A stretch of DNA of 49,949 bases from a virus (taxonomy: Duplodnaviria > Caudoviricetes): positions 1 through 49,949 of IMG/VR virus record IMGVR_UViG_3300037470_000128. One strand, written 5' to 3'. A model generated the notes under the pieces. That model saw only the letters and a list, made by a program, of their open reading frames with translations, was not told the DNA's origin and did no database searches. Shown piece after piece: positions 6,384 to 37,139 of this stretch. The position numbers and the translations under genes were made by a program. Positions within the stretch are counted from its first letter, which is position 1; each line of letters begins with the position of its first letter.

Positions 6384-6739
6384 GTCTATCCGCCGGCCGC
6401 CTGCGCCATCGCATCACCATCCAACAGCTCGTCACCACCGGGCAGGATCCTACTACCGGTGAGCTCAATCAGGAATGGCAGGATCTGCATACCAGAGTAC
6501 CCGCAGCGATCGAACCGCTGAGCGCTCGCGAGTTCATGGCGTCTCAGGCGGTGCAGTCTAAATACAGCGCCCGCATCGTGATCCGGTACCGCGCCGGACT
6601 GGACCCTGCCATGCGTATCGTTGGCGTCTGCGGTTGCCATGATGGGAGGATTTTCAACCCGGCTGGCTGGCTGGCCGATCCTGACAGTGGGATCGAGTAT
6701 CTGACTGCGCCGGTGTCAGAGGGTATCGATAATGGTTAG
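6380..6739 (+). CDS. Head closure protein / head-tail adaptor (SPP1 gp16-like)
   Basis: AGRLRHRITIQ, AAIEPLSAREF, RIVIRYR motifs. Confidence 0.9.
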   Translation: MSLSAGRLRHRITIQQLVTTGQDPTTGELNQEWQDLHTRVPAAIEPLSAREFMASQAVQSKYSARIVIRYRAGLDPAMRIVGVCGCHDGRIFNPAGWLADPDSGIEYLTAPVSEGIDNG

Positions 6740-6957
6740 GGGCCACTGATTTCTGTGCCATCGATCTTATATGTGATGGTCACATCGAGTGCATTGAATA
6801 GCTTGGCAATAGTCGAGGCGCGCATGTCGGACTTGCCAGACTCGAAAGTCGCAATCGACACTTGGCTGACGCCTGCTATGTGAGCAAGTTCAGCCTGCGA
6901 TACTCCGCGCAGGTGGCGGATTGCGCGTAATTTAGGACCGGTAATCATAGTGCCCAT
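6736..6957 (-). CDS. XRE-family HTH transcriptional regulator, divergent from the Cas7-like gene
   Basis: LRAIRHLRGVSQAELAHIAGVSQVSIATFESGK is a classic Cro/CI HTH; GAGG RBS upstream. Confidence 0.9.
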   Translation of the reverse strand: MGTMITGPKLRAIRHLRGVSQAELAHIAGVSQVSIATFESGKSDMRASTIAKLFNALDVTITYKIDGTEISGP

Positions 6958-7056
6958 TGTAAGCCTCGCAAGCTGATTTAAAAATACAGAAAACTATTGC
7001 AATAGTATAGCGAGCTGCATTAACCTTCAAGGGTAAGGCAACCCTTGGAGGAAGTT
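6958..7056. promoter_or_regulatory. Divergent promoter region with perfect 14-bp palindrome (candidate XRE operator)
   Basis: ACTATTGCAATAGT at 6993-7006 overlaps TTGCAA (-35-like); hairpin CAAGGGT/ACCCTTG at 7028-7047 next to the GGAGG RBS. Confidence 0.6.
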
Positions 7057-7632
7057 ATGGAAACGATCAAAGTTAAAATCATTGGCACCCGCCCGCTGCT
7101 GATGCATGCAGACATCTTATCGGATCCGCTTAATGCGGCCACAAAGGCTCACAAAGCTGTGACATCAAAGCGCAAAAAAACAGACGACGATTACGAATTC
7201 ATCGCGAAGTCTGAATGGAGTTCCGGTCTTTATTTTGATGACGATATTGGTCCTTACATTCCGGGTGCAAATATCGATGCAGCACTGGTATCTGGTGCGA
7301 AGCTTTGCAGACTCGGAACCCAGATTAAGCGCTCGGCGGAATGCATTGATGAACGATGCAGGCTTGAATATGAAGGTCCAAGAACTGTAATAGGGTTGTG
7401 GGATAAGGGTTTCTATGATGCAAGAACCGTGAAGAACCCCGGAAGCAGCTCCAGGATCGTGCGCTATCGCCCGGTGTTTCACAGATGGTCGCTAGAGTGT
7501 GAAATTGCCTATGATCCCGAGTCGATTGATCGTGCTCAGGTTGTCAAATGCCTGAAAGATGCAGGCATATACAGCGGCATCGGCGACTACCGCCCCAAGT
7601 TCGGCCGATTCGATGTCGAGGTAGTGAAATGA
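7057..7632 (+). CDS. Stand-alone Cas7/RAMP-like protein (Vipr-like candidate RNA-guided effector)
   Basis: N-terminal strand IKVKIIGTRPLLMH, PYIPGANIDAAL (compare Csm3/Cas7 PxIPGSSxKG), C-terminal glycine loop SGIGDYRPKFGRFDV; sits upstream of GGC-NN arrays. Confidence 0.75.
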   Translation: METIKVKIIGTRPLLMHADILSDPLNAATKAHKAVTSKRKKTDDDYEFIAKSEWSSGLYFDDDIGPYIPGANIDAALVSGAKLCRLGTQIKRSAECIDERCRLEYEGPRTVIGLWDKGFYDARTVKNPGSSSRIVRYRPVFHRWSLECEIAYDPESIDRAQVVKCLKDAGIYSGIGDYRPKFGRFDVEVVK

Positions 7633-8108
7633 CAACGGCGAGGCATTTCGCGATGACAGACTGGTCTCTTGAGAATGCGGTTTCCGATTTCTTGAAAGAA
7701 GAGTTCAAGGACGGTGATATGATCAGCCACGACTGGCTGCGAATGGCGCTTGACATCAATGCCCGCGCTATCAAAAAAAACGAGTTCATCCTGTTGGAGC
7801 GGATGGAAGCCTTTAAGACTGCACTTCTGGAAACGCATCAGATTGCGTTGCAGAACGTGCGCGGGAAAGGCTATCGGCTGGTGCCGCCTTCAGAGCAGGC
7901 GCGCTATGCGGCAGAGGAGCTTGCGCACTACATGAAGAAGGGTTTCAAGAAGGCCGATTCACTGCTGACCAATACGCGCTGTGATCAGTTGTCCACGGAT
8001 GAGCGTCGCCGCCATACGGACACCCAGATCAGAGTGGCGGCGCTATCCGGGATGGTTAGTAAGGGTAAACGTGATGTTTTCCTGCTCTTCAAGAATAGTA
8101 AGAAATAG
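7629..8108 (+). CDS. Accessory protein translationally coupled to the Cas7-like gene; possible winged-HTH
   Basis: ATGA overlap; LQNVRGKGYRL resembles a wHTH wing; helical C-terminus. Confidence 0.7.
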   Translation: MTTARHFAMTDWSLENAVSDFLKEEFKDGDMISHDWLRMALDINARAIKKNEFILLERMEAFKTALLETHQIALQNVRGKGYRLVPPSEQARYAAEELAHYMKKGFKKADSLLTNTRCDQLSTDERRRHTDTQIRVAALSGMVSKGKRDVFLLFKNSKK

Positions 8109-8129
8109 GAATATCTATTGTGTCGTTCC

Positions 8130-8190
8130 CTGGCGCGGCACGGCCTGGCGAGGCCTGGCAGGGCGGGGCATGGCCAGGCAGGGCATGGGC
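8130..8190 (+). ncRNA. Pentamer array 1, (GGC-NN)x11; candidate guide RNA
   Basis: GGC every 5 nt from 8132 to 8182; NN = GC AC CT GA CT AG GG AT CA AG AT. Confidence 0.7.
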
Positions 8191-8251
8191 TGAGAGTTCA
8201 GCGGGTGATCGGTTCATAGAGCCGTGATCCCGGTGGGTTTTCCACCATATC

Positions 8252-8316
8252 AAGGCCGGGCCTGGCCTGGCGTGGCAGGGCAAGGCGGGGCGGGGCGAGG
8301 CTGGGCGCGGCAAGGT
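8252..8316 (+). ncRNA. Pentamer array 2, (GGC-NN)x12 plus GGT; candidate guide RNA
   Basis: GGC every 5 nt from 8254 to 8309, GGT at 8314; NN = CG CT CT GT AG AA GG GG GA TG GC AA. Confidence 0.7.
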
Positions 8317-8332
8317 GAAGTAACAGGAGAAC

Positions 8333-8360
8333 AAAACCCCCACATCGGGGGTTTTTTATT
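8333..8360 (+). terminator. Intrinsic terminator closing the Cas7-like/array module
   Basis: AAAACCCCC-ACATC-GGGGGTTTTTT. Confidence 0.85.
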
Positions 8361-8369
8361 GCCAGAAAT

Positions 8370-8954
8370 ATGACAAAACAAAGATGGAAAGATCAGACTG
8401 TCGCCGTAATTGGCAGCGGACCGAGCCTGACAGAGCACGACTGCCAGCTGATAGAAGCGGCAGGCCTGCCTACCGTCGTCACCAACGCCACTTGGAAAAT
8501 CGCCCCGTTCTGCGATGTGATCATGGGTGCCGACCATGCCTGGTGGCGGGACAATCACGACAAGATCACAGTGCCCGCCGAGAGGGTGACGATTTCGCAG
8601 AACGCTGCGCGGCAGTTCGGGCTGAGCCAATACGGCAAAACCCGGACATCGAAATTCAGCGGCCTGCGGGCCATCGAGTACGCCATGGATGAGGGTGCCA
8701 ATAGGATCATCCTGTTGGGGTTCGATTGCAGTACCCGGAAGGGCACGCACTGGCACGGCAATCACGTCGGCTTGGGTAACCCGGACGGCAACCGCTGCAA
8801 GAAATGGCAGTTCTGGCTGCTGGAGTTGTCGATGATCGCGAAGAAGCGCGGCGTCGAGATCATCAACTGCAGCCGCGAAACCGCACTGACCCATTTCCCG
8901 CGCATGCCGCTTGAAAAGGCACTGTCAAAAATAGGGGCAATAACCCGTGACTGA
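8370..8954 (+). CDS. DUF115/Maf/sialyltransferase-like Rossmann-fold protein (putative glycosyltransferase)
   Basis: VAVIGSGPSL, SGLRAI, IILLGFD, HWHG, IINCS motifs. Confidence 0.65.
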   Translation: MTKQRWKDQTVAVIGSGPSLTEHDCQLIEAAGLPTVVTNATWKIAPFCDVIMGADHAWWRDNHDKITVPAERVTISQNAARQFGLSQYGKTRTSKFSGLRAIEYAMDEGANRIILLGFDCSTRKGTHWHGNHVGLGNPDGNRCKKWQFWLLELSMIAKKRGVEIINCSRETALTHFPRMPLEKALSKIGAITRD

Positions 8955-9747
8955 TCCGATTCGCATCTTCGTCGGCTGCGCGCCGAACCATGAAGACGCC
9001 GAGAGCCAGGCTGTGCTTGAGTGGTCGATCCGCAAGCACACCCGCCTTCCGGTGCAGATCACATGGATGCGACTGAGCAGAGATACGGCGTCGCCGTGTT
9101 ATTCGTCCGACGGTGAGGGCTGGGATACCTCGCAGTGGGCAACGCCGTTCAGCGCCCTGCGTTGGTCTATTCCCGAGCAGTGCGGTTTTCAAGGCAAGGC
9201 CATCTACACCGATTCAGATGTGATATTCATGGCCGACCTGGCTGGGCTCTGGAATCAGCAGCACGCCCCGGGCAAGTTCCTGTTAGCCAAAGGCGGCGGC
9301 CAATGGCGCATCTGCGTCTCGATGTTTGACTGTGCCGAGGCGAAACGGAATATACCGCCGGTCGAGCGGATGATGCGTGACCCGCGGGCACACCAGAAGC
9401 TGTGCGGCCTGATCCGACAGAAACGGGATCTGGTGCAAGCGTTCTCCGGCGAGTGGAATTGCCTCGACCGCGAAATAGGACAGCGCCCCGTCGACCACCC
9501 GTCCATCAAAGCCATACACTACACAGACATGAAATCCCAGCCGCAGCTGCGCCACGCGCTGCCTAGGCTCAAGGCGCAAGGTCAAAAGCACTGGTTCGAC
9601 GGTAAGACAACGCCGCAGCGATTCCCGCGCATCAATGCTCTGTTCGATGACCTACTGGCCGAGGCTGCCGCGAACGGATACGGTCCCGATGGCTATATGC
9701 AGGATCCGCTTTTTGGTGACTACCGCAAGAAGGGATTTGCCGCATGA
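8947..9747 (+). CDS. GT-A fold glycosyltransferase (GT8-like)
   Basis: IRIFVG, WATPFS..RW, AIYTDSDVIF (DxD), EWNCLD, AIHYT. Confidence 0.8.
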   Translation: MTDPIRIFVGCAPNHEDAESQAVLEWSIRKHTRLPVQITWMRLSRDTASPCYSSDGEGWDTSQWATPFSALRWSIPEQCGFQGKAIYTDSDVIFMADLAGLWNQQHAPGKFLLAKGGGQWRICVSMFDCAEAKRNIPPVERMMRDPRAHQKLCGLIRQKRDLVQAFSGEWNCLDREIGQRPVDHPSIKAIHYTDMKSQPQLRHALPRLKAQGQKHWFDGKTTPQRFPRINALFDDLLAEAAANGYGPDGYMQDPLFGDYRKKGFAA

Positions 9748-10391
9748 TTACCGTTGCTTGCGTCCGCTCCGGCACCAAGTACGGCATTGAATACGTTGAG
9801 AGGCTCCGGAACATGGTAGCCCGGCACCTGCCGATGGAGCACCGGTTCATCTGCCTGACGGACCAGCCTGAAAAGATCGCCGGCGTCGAGAGGGTGCATA
9901 TCAGGCATTTCGGCTGGACGGGGTGGTGGGCAAAAATGGCGCTTCTGCATCCTCATCTGCGTGGCCCAGGGCGGTGCCTCTATTTCGACCTGGACACCGT
10001 TATCATCGACGACCTGACGCTGCTGGCGAATTGGGATGGAGAGTTCGGTATCTGCCAGAACTTTACAAAGCTGGCCGGAAATCATAACTGGCCCTGCAAA
10101 TATGGGTCCTGTGTTATGTCTCTGGCAGAAGGTTTCGGCGCCATTCTGTTTGACCGGTTCGTGGCTGACGCTAAGGGCTGGATGGCCCGCTGCCCCCGGG
10201 GCGATCAGCAGGCGATCGAGAAACTCTACCCGCACGCCGAGTTTCTGCAGGGCGCCATGCCGCCAGGCTATTTCGTCGGCCGCCGGGACTTCACCGGCGA
10301 TCGTCCGAGAGGCGCCGCGGTGATGGTCTTTGCTGGCCAGCACAAACCCCACAACACGCCGCACCAGTGGCTTAAAGAGGCATGGGTATGA
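9744..10391 (+). CDS. GT-A fold glycosyltransferase
   Basis: GTKYGIEYVERLRNMVARHL, FICLTD, GWWAKM, LYFDLDTVI (DxD), GDQ, KPH. Confidence 0.8.
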   Translation: MITVACVRSGTKYGIEYVERLRNMVARHLPMEHRFICLTDQPEKIAGVERVHIRHFGWTGWWAKMALLHPHLRGPGRCLYFDLDTVIIDDLTLLANWDGEFGICQNFTKLAGNHNWPCKYGSCVMSLAEGFGAILFDRFVADAKGWMARCPRGDQQAIEKLYPHAEFLQGAMPPGYFVGRRDFTGDRPRGAAVMVFAGQHKPHNTPHQWLKEAWV

Positions 10392-10987
10392 CCATTGTAA
10401 ATGGCCGCCAGGCGGCGCCGACCCTCGACGGCATCCGTGACGATCACCTGGCGCGGTATCAGCTAGCTGTAGACCATGCCCTGCGCAATCGCCTGAAAAC
10501 CGCCGTCGACGCAGGCTCCGGCATTGGCTATGGTGCCTGGATGCTGGCTAACGCCGGCCTTACTGTTGAGGCCTACGAGATCGATCAGAGAGCCATTGAC
10601 TACGGTCAGCAGTATTACCACCATGACCAGCTGGCCCGCATTCAGGCCGATATTTCCGAATTGGATATCCCGCAGGTTGACCTGCTCACCGCGTTCGAGA
10701 TCGTCGAACACAGTCACGCCGCCCCGGCATTCCTCGCCCGCGCCGCCGGCCATGCCCGTTGGTTGATTGCCTCTGTACCGAATGAGGCAGTGATCCCGTT
10801 CGCGCAGAACAGGCACCGCGAGCACGTGCGCCACTACACGGCTGATCAGTTCCGGAAGATGCTCCAGGACGCTGGCTGGGAGGTCGTGTCTATCGGCAGC
10901 CAGCGGGGCAAGTGCGGCGACGATGCCGAGGTCTGGCTGGGCGACACCTCCGGCCGCACGCTGATTGCGGTTTGTCGCTCAAAATGA
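10388..10987 (+). CDS. Class I SAM-dependent methyltransferase
   Basis: HLARY, VDAGSGIGYG (motif I), FEIVEH, SVPN. Confidence 0.88.
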   Translation: MTIVNGRQAAPTLDGIRDDHLARYQLAVDHALRNRLKTAVDAGSGIGYGAWMLANAGLTVEAYEIDQRAIDYGQQYYHHDQLARIQADISELDIPQVDLLTAFEIVEHSHAAPAFLARAAGHARWLIASVPNEAVIPFAQNRHREHVRHYTADQFRKMLQDAGWEVVSIGSQRGKCGDDAEVWLGDTSGRTLIAVCRSK

Positions 10988-11571
10988 TCATAAGCCATCG
11001 GTGGAAATTCATTTTCATCAAGACGCGAAAGACAGCGGGCTCGTCGATAGAGGCTGCGCTGGCTTCAATTCTGGGCCCGGATGATATATCGACCGGCTCG
11101 GTTCGTGACGGCACACCTCGTCTGAACTGCCCGGACAAAGTAACCGGGCATTGGGGCTGGCGCCGGATCGTCGGACTAGCCGGCAAGGATGCATTTTGGA
11201 ATTACCGCAGGTTCTGCGTTGAGCGTAACCCCTACGACAAAACGGTGAGCGACTGGCTGTACCACCGCGACCAGTTGCGCGACACTGCGCTGCCGCTGGC
11301 CGACTACATTGAGCACAATGGCCCGAGCGACTGGGAACGCTACACGCAGTCCGGTAAGCCGATTGCCCGTGTGCTGCTGTTCGAAAACATCGTCGCCGAG
11401 TTCGCCAAGCAGTGCGCGGCCATGGACATACCGGTGATAAATCTGGACCCATACCAGCTGAAGAGAAACCAATCCCGCGGCCCGTACAGTGACTATCACG
11501 ACTCAAGCAGCCGAACTTGCGTTGCTCGGATATTCGCCAACGAATTGAAGCACTTCGGATACCAGCCGTGA
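10984..11571 (+). CDS. Sulfotransferase (Sulfotransfer_2-like)
   Basis: MIISHRWKFIFIKTRKTAGSSI (5'-PSB loop) and RNPYDKTVS (3'-PB motif); ATGA overlap with the methyltransferase. Confidence 0.82.
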   Translation: MIISHRWKFIFIKTRKTAGSSIEAALASILGPDDISTGSVRDGTPRLNCPDKVTGHWGWRRIVGLAGKDAFWNYRRFCVERNPYDKTVSDWLYHRDQLRDTALPLADYIEHNGPSDWERYTQSGKPIARVLLFENIVAEFAKQCAAMDIPVINLDPYQLKRNQSRGPYSDYHDSSSRTCVARIFANELKHFGYQP

Positions 11572-12380
11572 AGATCATCGCCTTCGAGCCCGACTACAAC
11601 GAGAAGCACCGCGCCGTGCTCAGGGCCCTGTCCGAGGGTATCCCGGGTGCAGAAGTGCGAACCCTGGGCCAATACGAACCCTGCGACATCGCCGTGATTT
11701 TCGGTGCCGCGAAAGATGCCTACCCGCCGACCTGGCCCAAGCGCGAGATCCTCGCCAAACACCAGGGGCGACGGCTGCTGATGGTTGAGTCCGCCTTCGT
11801 GCGCCGCGGCGAGTACTATCAGGTGGGATGGGGCGGCTACGCCGGTAACGCGGATTTCAACAATGACCTCGTGCCGCGGGATCGCTGGGAGTCGATGGGC
11901 ATCAAGACCAAACCCTGGCAGCGCCGAACGGTCGGCCCGGTCGTTGTCTGTGGTCAGCTACCGCGCGACACCCAGGTTCAGGGTATGGATCACGTGGCCT
12001 GGTGCCGGCGCACCGTTAACGAATTGCGTAGAATGGGCGAGCATGTCATCTTTCGCCCGCATCCGAGGCAGCAGGACGTATCGATTTACGGCGTGCCGTC
12101 ACACCTGATCGGCGACGGCAAGATTGGCAAGACACTGGCCGCGGCAAAGTGCGTCGTCACCTGGAATTCCACGTCCGCGGTGGATGCTCTGATCCGAGGC
12201 GTCCCGGCCATCGCTATGCACCCCAGCTCGGTATCCTACCCAGTCGCCCAGCACCGCCTTGAAGACGTGAAGAAGCTACGCTACCCATCGCGTCGCCAGT
12301 GGCTGGCCGGCCTCGGGTATGCCCAGTGGACGCTGGAAGAAATGCGGGCCGGGCTTCCGTGGGTTCATCTGAACCGCTGA
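11568..12380 (+). CDS. KpsS/Capsule_synth-like GT-B glycosyltransferase
   Basis: GQLPRDTQ, FRPHP, VVTWNSTSAVDALIRGVP motifs; GTGA overlap. Confidence 0.72.
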   Translation: MKIIAFEPDYNEKHRAVLRALSEGIPGAEVRTLGQYEPCDIAVIFGAAKDAYPPTWPKREILAKHQGRRLLMVESAFVRRGEYYQVGWGGYAGNADFNNDLVPRDRWESMGIKTKPWQRRTVGPVVVCGQLPRDTQVQGMDHVAWCRRTVNELRRMGEHVIFRPHPRQQDVSIYGVPSHLIGDGKIGKTLAAAKCVVTWNSTSAVDALIRGVPAIAMHPSSVSYPVAQHRLEDVKKLRYPSRRQWLAGLGYAQWTLEEMRAGLPWVHLNR

Positions 12381-12388
12381 GGCTGCAG

Positions 12389-13039
12389 ATGGCTGAAATT
12401 GAATTCTGCGAGATTACCGACCGCCACGACAACATCGCCATTGTGGCCAGCGGCCCGAGCGCGCGGGGATTCTCGGCACCGCCGGGCGTGACGGTCATCG
12501 CAGTCAACGGTACCATAGAGTGGCTGCCGACAGCCGACTACTGGTTCACGCTGGACCCGGGCCAGCGCAACCGGGCCCGCATGCTTAACCGCCGACCCGG
12601 CACGGTCTACTTCGCGGCAGTGCCAAGCACATTCGGCACCGCCAGCGCCCCGCTCACAGGAATGCGTCAGCCGGCCCCAGCAGGAATCCGGTACCTGCTG
12701 CGCATGACTGGTAACGGGGTATTGAGTGCCAAGACCGGGCTTTCTGATCACCCCGGGCAGATCCACACCGGCAACAGCGCCTATGGCGCCCTTGGTCTGG
12801 CGTACCTCATGGATGCCCGGCGTATCTCCCTGTTCGGCGTCGATGCCAGCCACGACCGGAGGATTGAGGGCGGGCGATCCAGCAACCTGGATCATCTGCC
12901 GGCGCTTTTTGCTACCGCCGCCTCGCAGCTGTATGGTGCTGGTGTCGAGGTGGTCAACGCTAGCCCCGGCAGCGCGATCGAGTGCTTTCCGAAGATGACA
13001 ATGGGAGATGCCCTGCAATGGCTCAGCACGAACTGGTAA
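12389..13039 (+). CDS. Second DUF115/Maf-like putative glycosyltransferase (paralog of 8370-8954)
   Basis: IAIVASGPSA, VIAVN, GNSAYGALGLAY, ISLFGVD, VVNASPGS. Confidence 0.65.
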   Translation: MAEIEFCEITDRHDNIAIVASGPSARGFSAPPGVTVIAVNGTIEWLPTADYWFTLDPGQRNRARMLNRRPGTVYFAAVPSTFGTASAPLTGMRQPAPAGIRYLLRMTGNGVLSAKTGLSDHPGQIHTGNSAYGALGLAYLMDARRISLFGVDASHDRRIEGGRSSNLDHLPALFATAASQLYGAGVEVVNASPGSAIECFPKMTMGDALQWLSTNW

Positions 13040-25684: not shown

Positions 25685-26415
25685 CGACCACGACCAACAC
25701 CGGCCTACCACTAATGGCATCGGAGCAGTTTCAGCCTGAAGTCACGCACAACGAGGCGATCATCCGACTGGCTGCGCTGCACAACGGCGTAGACGACTTC
25801 GGCCTCAACACCCCGACAGGCAGCGAGGCTGATGGTTACACCACCGTCGTCGGAACTTCACCGACAGGCGACTTAGCGGGCCGCGCCAACACAATTGCAC
25901 ACAAAACCGCGAGCGGCTGGCTGTTCTTGCCGGACCGCGATAGCAGCGGCACCATCATCACGATGGGCGTTGATCAGTTCGGGATATTCGCATTCGACCG
26001 CGATGCAGAGATCCTCAAATATTGGGATGGCGCTACATGGACAGGCTATGGAGGCGGTGGGATACCGACATCAGGTGGTACTGGGTCTGTAAAATTCCTC
26101 GGATCAGAACCGGCAGAGGTATTCGAGGACACGAGCAATGAACTGGAATTCGACTACACCGCCAATGGTGAGTGGCAATACTGGACGGCGACGCAGGCTG
26201 GTACTGTGCTCAGCGTGGTATCTGCCAACCTGCCAGTTGGTCACATGCTGCGGATTGAGCTTTTCGATTGCGACGTTAACGCACCTGATATCTCTGCGTT
26301 CACGCCGGTATTGAATGGAGACACCATCACATTCGACACTGTGACCGTGATATTTGCGGAGAAACTCAGCGACGGAACGGTCAGATACATAGCTGGCGGG
26401 ACGTATGCATCATGA
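25681..26415 (+). CDS. DUF2793-like tail fibre-associated protein
   Basis: LPLMASEQFQPEVTHNEAI N-terminus, YWDGATW. Confidence 0.78.
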   Translation: MTTTTNTGLPLMASEQFQPEVTHNEAIIRLAALHNGVDDFGLNTPTGSEADGYTTVVGTSPTGDLAGRANTIAHKTASGWLFLPDRDSSGTIITMGVDQFGIFAFDRDAEILKYWDGATWTGYGGGGIPTSGGTGSVKFLGSEPAEVFEDTSNELEFDYTANGEWQYWTATQAGTVLSVVSANLPVGHMLRIELFDCDVNAPDISAFTPVLNGDTITFDTVTVIFAEKLSDGTVRYIAGGTYAS

Positions 26416-27335
26416 GGCCGCAGGCGCAGTGGAGGCGAAGCAGGGTGGTTATTTTAGTGCCAGGTGGTGGTGGTACCCCATGGGGTTCTCGTGCGGTTTT
26501 CGGAGGGGGATTAGCCAGTGTTAACGTCAACACCATCGATTACGTCGAAATATCGACCCCGGGAAATGCTGTTGATTTTGGTGATCTTACATTAGCACGC
26601 CACACTCCAGCTGCAGCATCAGATGGTTCCCGTGCGGTTTTCGGAGGGGGATTCACCAGTGTTAACGTCAACACCATCGACTACGTCGAAATATCGACCC
26701 CGGGAAATGCTGTTGATTTTGGTGATCTTACATTAGCGCGCCGTCCCGCAGCTGCAGCATCAGATGGTTCCCGTGCGGTTTTCGGAGGGGGATTCACCGG
26801 TGTTGACGTCAACACCATCGACTACGTCGAAATATCGACCCCGGGAAATGCTGTTGATTTTGGTGATCTTACATTAGCGCGCCGTGCCGCAGCTGCAGCA
26901 TCAGATGGTTCCCGTGCGGTTTTCGGAGGAGGAATCACCAGTGTTAGTATAAACACCATCGATTATGTAGAAATATCGACCCCGGGAAATGCTGTTGATT
27001 TTGGTGATCTTACATTAGCACGCCACTCTCCAGCTGCAGCATCAGATGGTTCCCGTGCGGTTTTCGGAGGGGGATTCACCAGTGTTAACGTCAACACCAT
27101 CGACTACGTCGAAATATCGACCCCGGGAAATGCTGTTGATTTTGGTGATCTTACATCAGCGCGCCGTTCCGCAGCTGCAGCATCAGATGGTTCCCGTGCG
27201 GTTTTCGGAGGGGGATTCACCAGTGTTAACGTCAACACCATCGATTACGTCGAAATATCGACCCCGGGAAATGCTGTTGATTTTGGTGATCTTACATTAG
27301 CGCGCCGCATTTGTAGTGCTGCATCCGGAGCTTAA
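26412..27335 (+). CDS. Six-bladed Kelch-like beta-propeller (DFGDLT repeat), candidate receptor-binding or adhesion protein
   Basis: Six 47-aa repeats SRAVFGGG..NTIDYVEISTPGNAVDFGDLT.AR. Confidence 0.8.
   Translation: MRPQAQWRRSRVVILVPGGGGTPWGSRAVFGGGLASVNVNTIDYVEISTPGNAVDFGDLTLARHTPAAASDGSRAVFGGGFTSVNVNTIDYVEISTPGNAVDFGDLTLARRPAAAASDGSRAVFGGGFTGVDVNTIDYVEISTPGNAVDFGDLTLARRAAAAASDGSRAVFGGGITSVSINTIDYVEISTPGNAVDFGDLTLARHSPAAASDGSRAVFGGGFTSVNVNTIDYVEISTPGNAVDFGDLTSARRSAAAASDGSRAVFGGGFTSVNVNTIDYVEISTPGNAVDFGDLTLARRICSAASGA
26487..27332 (+). repeat. Six near-identical 141-bp tandem repeats
   Basis: Units start at 26487, 26628, 26769, 26910, 27051, 27192. Confidence 0.95.
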
Positions 27336-31296: not shown

Positions 31297-31395
31297 TCAA
31301 CTCCATGCCCAGCCGCGCGGGGCGTCGATGACGATGGCGAAACAGACGGCGCCGACAACGAGAACGGCGAGGAGGTGCAGGGCGATTTTCATCAT
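31297..31395 (-). CDS. Small hydrophobic peptide ([32 protein letters not shown])
   Basis: GAGG RBS; ATGA overlap with the upstream gene. Confidence 0.5.
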
Positions 31396-32132
31396 TCCAC
31401 CTCGGATATATAGCCGCTTTTCAGCGAGTACCAGGTGTCGGCCTTTACTCCATCGCGCCCAACAATCCCAGACCAAACGTTGACGATTTCTAAATCGTCG
31501 TTGCGCTCGACGAGGAATAGGGCGTTGCCTTTGGCACCCATGACGCGTCCCTCGTATCCTGATGCCATCGCCGCGCCCTGGTGGCCGGTGGAGCTGGCCG
31601 CGCCCTGGTCGCCGGTGGAGCTGGCCGCGCCCTGGTCGCCGGTGGAGCTGGCCGCGCCCCGGTGGCCGGTGGAGCTGGCCGCGCCCTGGTCGCCGGTGGA
31701 GCTGGCCGCGCCCTGGTCGCCGGTGGAGCTGGCCGCGCCCTGGTCGCCGGTGGAGCTGGCCGCGCCCTGGTCGCCGGTGGAGCTGGCCGGAGATTCGGGA
31801 TTGACCGGTTTGCACCGACTAATGGTGTATTCGATAGCGGATTTGACGAGCCCCGGCAACGTGATCTCGGCAGAAATTGTTATCTTGGAGCTGGCAACTT
31901 TCGAGTCGCCATTGTGGTGATCGATAACGCCGCTCTGTTCGACTACTGCGTATCGAGAACTTGCCGGCGCGTAGTAGCTGAATACATCAAGTGGATACTC
32001 GCAGGCGTGAAATCCTTTATTACAGGCCTTCACACCACCTTGGTGCTCATAGGTGCCGCCAATCTCGTACTGATACCCACGACAGGTCAGGTCCTGGTTT
32101 AATCCCTTGTATGCGGTGATTTTGTCTGTCAC
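31392..32132 (-). CDS. Phage protein with [18 protein letters not shown] domain and ASSTGDQGA repeats (DUF7666-like)
   Basis: Recognisable N-terminal motif, 9-aa repeats, C-terminal [12 protein letters not shown]. Confidence 0.85.
31575..31790 (-). repeat. About eight 27-bp coding tandem repeats
   Basis: Unit GGTGGAGCTGGCCGCGCCCTGGTCGCC on the + strand. Confidence 0.9.
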
Positions 32133-36502: not shown

Positions 36503-36892
36503 ATGAACAATATCGATAATCTGACATTTGGCGAACTAAAGAAGATCGCCGCAATGTTTCATGCTACACAATCACCATCGGTTAATTACGGTCTAAACGC
36601 TATGATCGGAAAGAAATGCATCATCCGCACTTATTCTGCCGGTGTTTGGTTTGGCAAGGTCGAGCAGAAGAGCGGTAATGAAGTTATCATCAAAAACGCT
36701 CGCCGCATGTGGCGCTGGCACGCGGCTGAATCAATCAGTCTAAGTGCCGTGGCGAATCATGGTATCCGACACGATAAAAGCAAGATCGCTGAATCGGTTA
36801 ATGTGGTCTGGCTTGAGGCTATAGAGCTAATCCCATGCACCGATAAAGCAATCACCAGCATAGAAGGCACAAATGATGTCGAAGCTGAATAA
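36503..36892 (+). CDS. DUF6948-like phage protein
   Basis: CIIRTYSAGVWFG, ARRMWRW, ISLSAVA, IELIPC. Confidence 0.78.
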   Translation: MNNIDNLTFGELKKIAAMFHATQSPSVNYGLNAMIGKKCIIRTYSAGVWFGKVEQKSGNEVIIKNARRMWRWHAAESISLSAVANHGIRHDKSKIAESVNVVWLEAIELIPCTDKAITSIEGTNDVEAE

Positions 36893-37139
36893 ACCAGACG
36901 GAGACGGCTCCGGCTACGGCTCCGGCGACGGCGACGGCGACGGCTCCGGCTACGGCGACGGCTCCGGCTACGGCTCCGGCTACGGCTCCGGCGACGGCGA
37001 CGGCTACGGCTCCGGCTACGGCGACGGCTCCGGCTCCGGCTCCGGCTACGGCTACGGCGACGGCGACGGCTCCGGCTACGGCTACGGCGACGGCTCCGGC
37101 TCCGGCTACGGCTCCGGCGACGGCTCCGGCTACGGCTAA
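36873..37139 (+). CDS. Gly-rich low-complexity protein, (G[DSY])n
   Basis: GGC-(TCC/TAC/GAC) hexamer repeats; commonly follows DUF6948-like genes. Confidence 0.65.
   Translation: MMSKLNKPDGDGSGYGSGDGDGDGSGYGDGSGYGSGYGSGDGDGYGSGYGDGSGSGSGYGYGDGDGSGYGYGDGSGSGYGSGDGSGYG

Follow-up and report, generated by a model that had tools for sequence, protein, structure and literature searches.

The phage and its vipr cassette

The window, that is, the whole stretch of DNA analysed here, is an entire record: a linear virus contig of 49,949 nt, estimated to be 91% complete. It carries capsid, portal, tape-measure, RecE/RecT, helicase, primase and endolysin genes, and no tyrosine integrase (PF00589) was found in the phage. 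As the best named relatives of its RecT (about 70%) come from Marinobacter, Marinobacterium, Halomonas, Microbulbifer and Alcanivorax, and the closest named relatives of its Vipr protein from Vreelandella and Pseudomonas, the host is probably a marine or saline Gammaproteobacterium. The region was found in at least 24 sediment and soil metagenome runs, with no RNA runs among those listed. Repeats were seen elsewhere in the phage: a 141-nt tandem repeat (26484–27307, 5.8 copies, 93% identity) within the ORF 26412–27335, a 27-nt repeat (31570–31789, 8 copies) in the minus-strand ORF 31392–32132, and a 6-nt repeat (36904–37138, 39 copies) that encodes a Gly-rich ORF of 88 aa (36873–37139). A cluster of glycosyltransferase-like, sialyltransferase-like and methyltransferase genes (8370–13039) lies between the head and tail modules.

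The features described below belong to an accessory cassette (Table 1). The order of genes is vipr, a vap1-like gene, array 1 and array 2, and there is no array upstream of vipr, where a divergent HTH gene sits. Neither cas genes nor a CRISPR array were found in the cassette.

Table 1. Positions in the window of the cassette, its genes and its two putative guide RNAs (vrRNAs)
Feature	Position	Strand	Basis or content
Accessory cassette (HTH gene, vipr, vap, two putative vrRNAs)	6706..8408		Between head-completion gene and glycosyltransferase-like gene
Cro/C1-type HTH gene, divergent, inside cassette	6736..6957	-	Pfam HTH_3, E 1e-10
vipr, 191-aa single-RAMP (Cas7-like) protein	7057..7632	+	PDB 36PP match, phrog_4652, AF2, Foldseek
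vap1-like accessory gene, 159 aa	7629..8108	+	ATGA overlap with vipr; phrog_5926
Array 1, guide tract of first vrRNA	8132..8186	+	11 GGC-NN units; C-CT-GG unit from 8129
Structured tail of vrRNA 1	8187..8246	+	Short hairpin, long bulged stem, final hairpin; first two covary, last read from sequence
Array 2, guide tract of second vrRNA	8254..8316	+	12 GGC-NN units and GGT; further C-AA-GG unit from 8251
3' end of vrRNA 2	8314..8357	+	Without short first hairpin; purine-rich linker; terminator-like hairpin 8333–8355 with T run (RNAfold, alignment)

VIPR, a CRISPR-related DNA silencer, was published in 2026 in three preprints (10.64898/2026.04.26.720920; 10.64898/2026.04.26.720927; 10.64898/2026.10.15.759431). 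Its guides consist of 9–16 YNNGG repeats, the NN letters of which pair with double-stranded DNA with a 1-nt skip and without a PAM, and its effect is the transcriptional silencing of rival phages (10.64898/2026.04.26.720920). The vipr product of our phage is a stand-alone single-RAMP protein with a G-loop and a thumb, as is characteristic of Vipr. It matched the SUSP1 Vipr chain of PDB 36PP over residues 1–190 (E 1.3e-42), and the best Foldseek matches of its AF2 model (pLDDT 92) were CRISPR type III and VII RAMP complexes. Residues H17, K33, R39, K82, G87, R138, D177 and R179 are the same as in SUSP1 Vipr; W178 is replaced by Y, and E71, M72, K88 and C173 also differ. Over 76 Vipr homologues, G170, G174, G176, D177 and R179 were invariant. 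According to the structural preprint, alanine changes of K33, K82, R138 or D177 abolish silencing in Vipr (10.64898/2026.04.26.720927).

Pfam gave no match for Vipr or Vap, and a search of the ESM Atlas with Vap returned unnamed clusters only. The vap1-like gene shares its phrog family with the gene behind vipr in Citrobacter phage Moogle, which is closely related to SUSP1; the two products are 28% identical (pairwise E 2e-14), and by its position the Moogle gene would be vap1. Thus, the locus has the minimal vipr and vap composition of VIPR in a phage without a CRISPR array, with the HTH gene as an additional component of the cassette. This HTH gene is retained beside vipr in two other loci, L046 and L047, at 72% (nucleotides). 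A perfect 14-bp palindrome is present at 6993–7006 in the space between the HTH gene and vipr (6958–7056); it could be an operator. The palindrome is broken in the sibling contig L043 and absent in L045–L047.

Together with vap and the two arrays, the HTH gene and vipr make up an insert of 1.7 kb that is optional, because contigs of runs X11 and X19 bypass it, joining 6705 to 8409 through 63 other letters, and because contigs of runs X2 and X5 have loose ends at 6705 and 8397–8409, with a depth of the flanks higher than that of the cassette.

The two arrays and their tails

The GGC trimers of array 2 start at 8254, 8259 and so on to 8309, and are followed by GGT at 8314–8316; the dinucleotides (NN) between them are CG CT CT GT AG AA GG GG GA TG GC AA. 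The preliminary description had given exactly this content (12 GGC and a terminal GGT at 5-nt spacing, with the same NN series), and it proved correct letter for letter. Its start at 8252 includes the AA that precedes the first GGC. These two letters (8252–8253) are the NN of the further unit beginning at 8251, so that array 2 has 13 YNNGG units when counted in this way. With a GGY frequency of 0.048, about 7e-13 runs of 13 would be expected by chance, and the longest GGY run was 5 in 300 triplet shuffles and 3 in the window outside the arrays. Clearly, array 2 is not a chance pattern. Its 12–13 units are inside the published 9–16 YNNGG range, with fixed GGY and hypervariable NN. The NN series was also right to be called unrelated to that of array 1, since the two arrays have at most 2 of 10 dinucleotides in common over the offsets tried.

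GGY-NN arrays were present in 26 of the 29 vipr/vap loci examined. Of 60 homologous arrays, 43 had AA, AG or AT as their last NN, so the unit nearest the 3' end may belong to a handle and be less informative about the target.

The arrays are separated by 67 nt, and a terminator-like hairpin follows the second of them only, as if array 1, its tail and array 2 were one long RNA or a two-site complex in which array 2 had no target of its own. We consider such an arrangement very unlikely, because the arrays of SUSP1 give separate RNAs of about 100 nt, each silencing its own site (10.64898/2026.04.26.720920), and because array 2 was replaced independently of array 1 in three of the copies compared below (L044, X2 and X5).

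The tail of array 1 is a conserved structured 3' tail that belongs to a covarying RNA family. In its first two elements, compared over 16 tails that were picked as this type and with a structure drawn by hand from their alignment, 95% of the cells were paired and 9 of 13 pairs showed two-sided change. None of 500 shuffles reached the observed values for pairing and covariation score, and 40–52% was obtained with slid controls. The tails begin with GGG in 40 of 60 cases. In the terminal arrays of close relatives the short hairpin is kept and is followed by a terminator-like stem. The tail of array 2, the sequence of which is conserved among siblings, lacks this first hairpin (its best early hairpin is of 2 bp), and the terminator-like stem at 8333–8355 is left. 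An early hairpin of at least 4 bp was found in 11 of 12 tails in vap-close loci, the exception being the identical tail of L043, and in 54 of 67 tails overall by a simple test. A consensus terminator scan did not call the 8333–8355 hairpin on the plus strand, and Rfam gave one match, at chance level and under its cut-off. Judging from these comparisons, array 2 appears to have lost part of the usual folded tail.

Array variation among sibling phages

The sibling copies L043 and L044 were compared with the window, as were contigs from 4 of the 24 runs listed for the region; the sample is small, and some of the short contigs derive from other loci. In L044, array 1 was the same as in the window, and array 2 had 10 NN versus 0 scaffold differences over the 8 units present; the genes next to it differed at 2 of 576 nt (vipr) and 1 of 476 nt (vap). 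Both arrays of L043 had other NN letters (21 differences at NN and 2 in the scaffold), and its array 2 had 10 units, two of them GGA instead of GGC. Its two tails were the same as in the window (no difference over 67 positions for tail 1 and over 56 for tail 2), and its vap differed at 4 of 476 nt.

The vipr allele of L043 (L043:459–1028 compared with 7057–7632) differed at 121 of 570 nt, mostly within 7100–7500, and its product was about 80% identical (amino acids). Apart from this divergent vipr, which is possibly the result of a recombinational swap, and from the new guides of its two arrays, the cassette of L043 is about 99% identical to that of the window. When sibling guides were compared with the other vipr allele or cassette, the best match was 15/22, and no cross-targeting was seen.

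The metagenome runs added further alleles. Array 1 was unchanged in X2, and its array 2 had at least 11 substitutions and a 5-nt deletion; in X19, at least 10 substitutions were found in array 1. Among those listed, all 21 array substitutions of X2 and X19 were at NN positions (0.4^21, about 4e-9). In X5, a contig of depth 47 crosses array 1 and ends where array 2 begins, and at least two low-depth alleles span array 2, one with a 10-nt insertion and one with the letters of X2; the tail of array 2 was unchanged from the window in an X5 contig. Taken together, array 1 was identical in L044, X2 and X5 and had different NN in L043 and X19, which makes three alleles (window-type, L043 and X19), and array 2 had at least five alleles among the same copies (window, L043, L044, X2-type and X5 long). 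The allele type of array 2 common to X2 and X5 was found in a 2020 and a 2025 run, and the indels of array 2 comprised whole units (5 and 10 nt). Hence, in L044, X2 and X5, array 2 varied behind an unchanged array 1.

Array 2 had been proposed to be a second guide with a different target. The first part of this proposal is supported, because NN changes while the GGC scaffold and the flanks stay, with a Vipr gene upstream; moreover, the published 1-nt-skip code is the pattern that had been proposed, and all this argues for a second guide of distinct specificity. The target itself was not found (see below). The NN-only turnover, in which the scaffold is preserved, confirms the guide code without relying on any model. 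Array 2 is probably the second guide (vrRNA) of a VIPR system that is an ordinary member of the published family. Short minus-strand ORFs overlap array 2, as if it were a low-complexity coding sequence, and one could also think of a DNA element such as an operator or a recombination tract. Both are extremely improbable in view of the Vipr gene upstream of array 2, the 5-nt period of its variation, the 5- and 10-nt indels, which would break a reading frame, and the adjoining tail, which covaries as RNA.

In our opinion array 2 probably serves as guide tract for the distal vrRNA in a VIPR system that resembles SUSP1 (type II-like) and is carried in the optional cassette of a roughly 50-kb tailed phage. 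The system would be type II-like by the similarity to SUSP1 Vipr and the common vap family. As to the biological role of array 2, which we infer from published work on homologues, a transcript would run through vipr and vap into both arrays and up to the terminator-like hairpin. Each GGC-NN unit would be bound by one Vipr protomer, with GGC buried, and the 12–13 NN pairs would cover some 36 bp of double-stranded DNA, leaving every third base unread. Such binding would silence transcription, most likely in a competing phage, prophage or satellite.

A further alternative is that array 2 descends from VIPR guides but is weak or inactive here through the loss of its tail hairpin, and that its variety reflects relaxed selection and whole-unit exchange with other arrays, by which GGC would be preserved unselected. 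The missing hairpin, the two GGA units of the L043 allele, the excess of array 2 alleles over those of array 1 and the empty target searches all fit this explanation. However, the altered tail is not drifting, because L043 and an X5 contig have exactly the same one; all 12 scaffold trimers of the window are perfect, and one allele type was met in runs of both 2020 and 2025 (X2 and X5). Moreover, 13 of 67 tails overall also lack a 4-bp hairpin, and no tail-deletion test was found in the accessible parts of the VIPR preprints (10.64898/2026.04.26.720920; 10.64898/2026.04.26.720927; 10.64898/2026.10.15.759431). We therefore regard a decayed array 2 as unlikely, and an active distal guide remains our preferred explanation.

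According to one preprint, VIPR silences satellites, and some guides aim at the vipr genes of other phages (10.64898/2026.10.15.759431). We can suggest, although only tentatively, that guides turn over rapidly in the distal array: in a single wild phage population, many array 2 alleles, differing by whole-unit gain, loss and replacement, would go with an array 1, a tail and a vap that stay the same. Guides at this place would work without the usual tail hairpin, and the vipr allele swapped in one of the siblings would record a conflict between VIPR systems. If this is true, one could study directly in this population how vrRNAs are newly written, a point left unexplained in the accessible parts of the three VIPR preprints; a narrow literature search, including the available text of 10.64898/2026.10.15.759431, found no account of their origin.

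Array length, targets and relation to known systems

The similar lengths of the two arrays had been taken to indicate a fixed number of subunits per complex. This was not borne out. Array 2 has 10 units in L043, 11 in X2, 12 in the window and 14 in X5, and such a change among near-identical phages rules out a fixed stoichiometry. In 60 homologous arrays (from 26 of 29 loci) the number of units was 5–23, with 35 of 60 at 10–13; the extremes of 5 and 23 are soft, as the counting pattern breaks up degenerate arrays and may join staggered ones into one. The preliminary description had named random variation of array length in homologues as an outcome that would refute it, and half of this was seen: the lengths do vary, but within a preferred range. 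As shown by cryo-EM, one Vipr protomer binds per repeat, with 12 subunits on the 12-repeat SUSP1 guide and 10–11 for P. fulva (10.64898/2026.04.26.720927). The subunit number therefore follows the array length: there is a preferred length range, and each guide sets its own number of subunits. The length of the filament would follow the unit number as well. Tracts of 17–23 GGY-NN units, beyond the published range, were noticed at L011:3548–4138 and in L002.

The gapped-pattern search suggested in the preliminary description was carried out with the NN letters and a 1-nt skip, every third base being ignored, and it revealed no target of array 2 in IMG/VR, JGI metagenomes, about 900 bacterial genome searches or the phage itself. 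The exact 24-base pattern had no match in IMG/VR, and the exact 22-base pattern none in JGI metagenomes. Three 16-base block patterns, which jointly catch any IMG/VR site with mismatches confined to one four-unit block, gave 11, 9 and 7 loci, none above 20/24. The best of them, one site in three contigs (L037, L039 and L042; 20/24), was dismissed as chance, since it gained 4 of the 8 remaining bases (probability 0.11 per site); by coordinates, its skipped base is at codon position 1. In bacterial genomes, no site was found with up to 3 mismatches (0/5, 0/301 and 0/401) or with up to 2 mismatches of 22 (0/201), in sets that are samples and overlap. As a positive control, the mismatch search recovered a known 2-mismatch site in L037. 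For array 1, the 18-base pattern gave no match and the 16-base pattern 4 loci, the best at 18/22. No self-target with a 1-nt skip was present in the phage's own genome (best 17/26 for array 2 and 16/24 for array 1), and with skips of 0, 2 and 3 only the arrays themselves matched. The lack of a self-target is in agreement with published VIPR. Finding no target is little surprise where the guide varies by allele and its phage is uncultured, and these collections may lack the rival element.

The locus adds one member to VIPR, of which 99 VIPR-like clusters have been recovered according to another preprint (10.64898/2026.10.21.760802), and the supplementary data of the VIPR preprints (Data S1–S4) may list this clade already. 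Its value lies in the population evidence from phages with about 99% identity elsewhere, and its non-routine part is the population-level turnover of the distal guide together with the reduced tail. The siblings thus constitute a tractable natural system for vrRNA acquisition and for the need of the tail hairpin.

The RAMP fold of Vipr, with type III and VII complexes at the top of the Foldseek matches, is shared with the Cas7/Csm3 backbone of Class 1 CRISPR; in contrast to the continuous spacer of the latter, the guide here is read in dinucleotides. The uncharacterised VIPR loci of Vreelandella, Pseudomonas and Nitrococcus (L007–L011), with Vipr 64–69% identical to ours, and that of Pseudomonas phage LESphi2 (L063), with Vipr 49% identical, have tails of the same family as array 1. 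Unlike our locus, they have 3–6 arrays, often upstream of vipr, and their terminal arrays mostly have the short hairpin. In LESphi2 (OQ594955.1), a cultured prophage, the vipr–vap pair is annotated as hypothetical proteins, and three arrays lie upstream. A contig labelled as a Methanobacteriota MAG (L012, JAEWMO010000025.1) encodes a Vipr 64% identical to that of the window and has three GGY arrays; it is possibly a mis-binned phage contig.

With the type II systems of Escherichia phage SUSP1 and a Pseudomonas fulva prophage, our locus shares vipr and a vap1-like gene, tandem GGY/NN tracts downstream of them, a structured tail after array 1, a phage-borne location and the functional residues of Vipr. 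It differs from them in that both of its two vrRNAs are downstream of vipr and none is upstream, and in that the tail of array 2 is without the first hairpin. Moreover, whereas the tail in SUSP1 is a pseudoknot, that of array 1 is of the three-hairpin type of Halomonadaceae and Pseudomonas loci.
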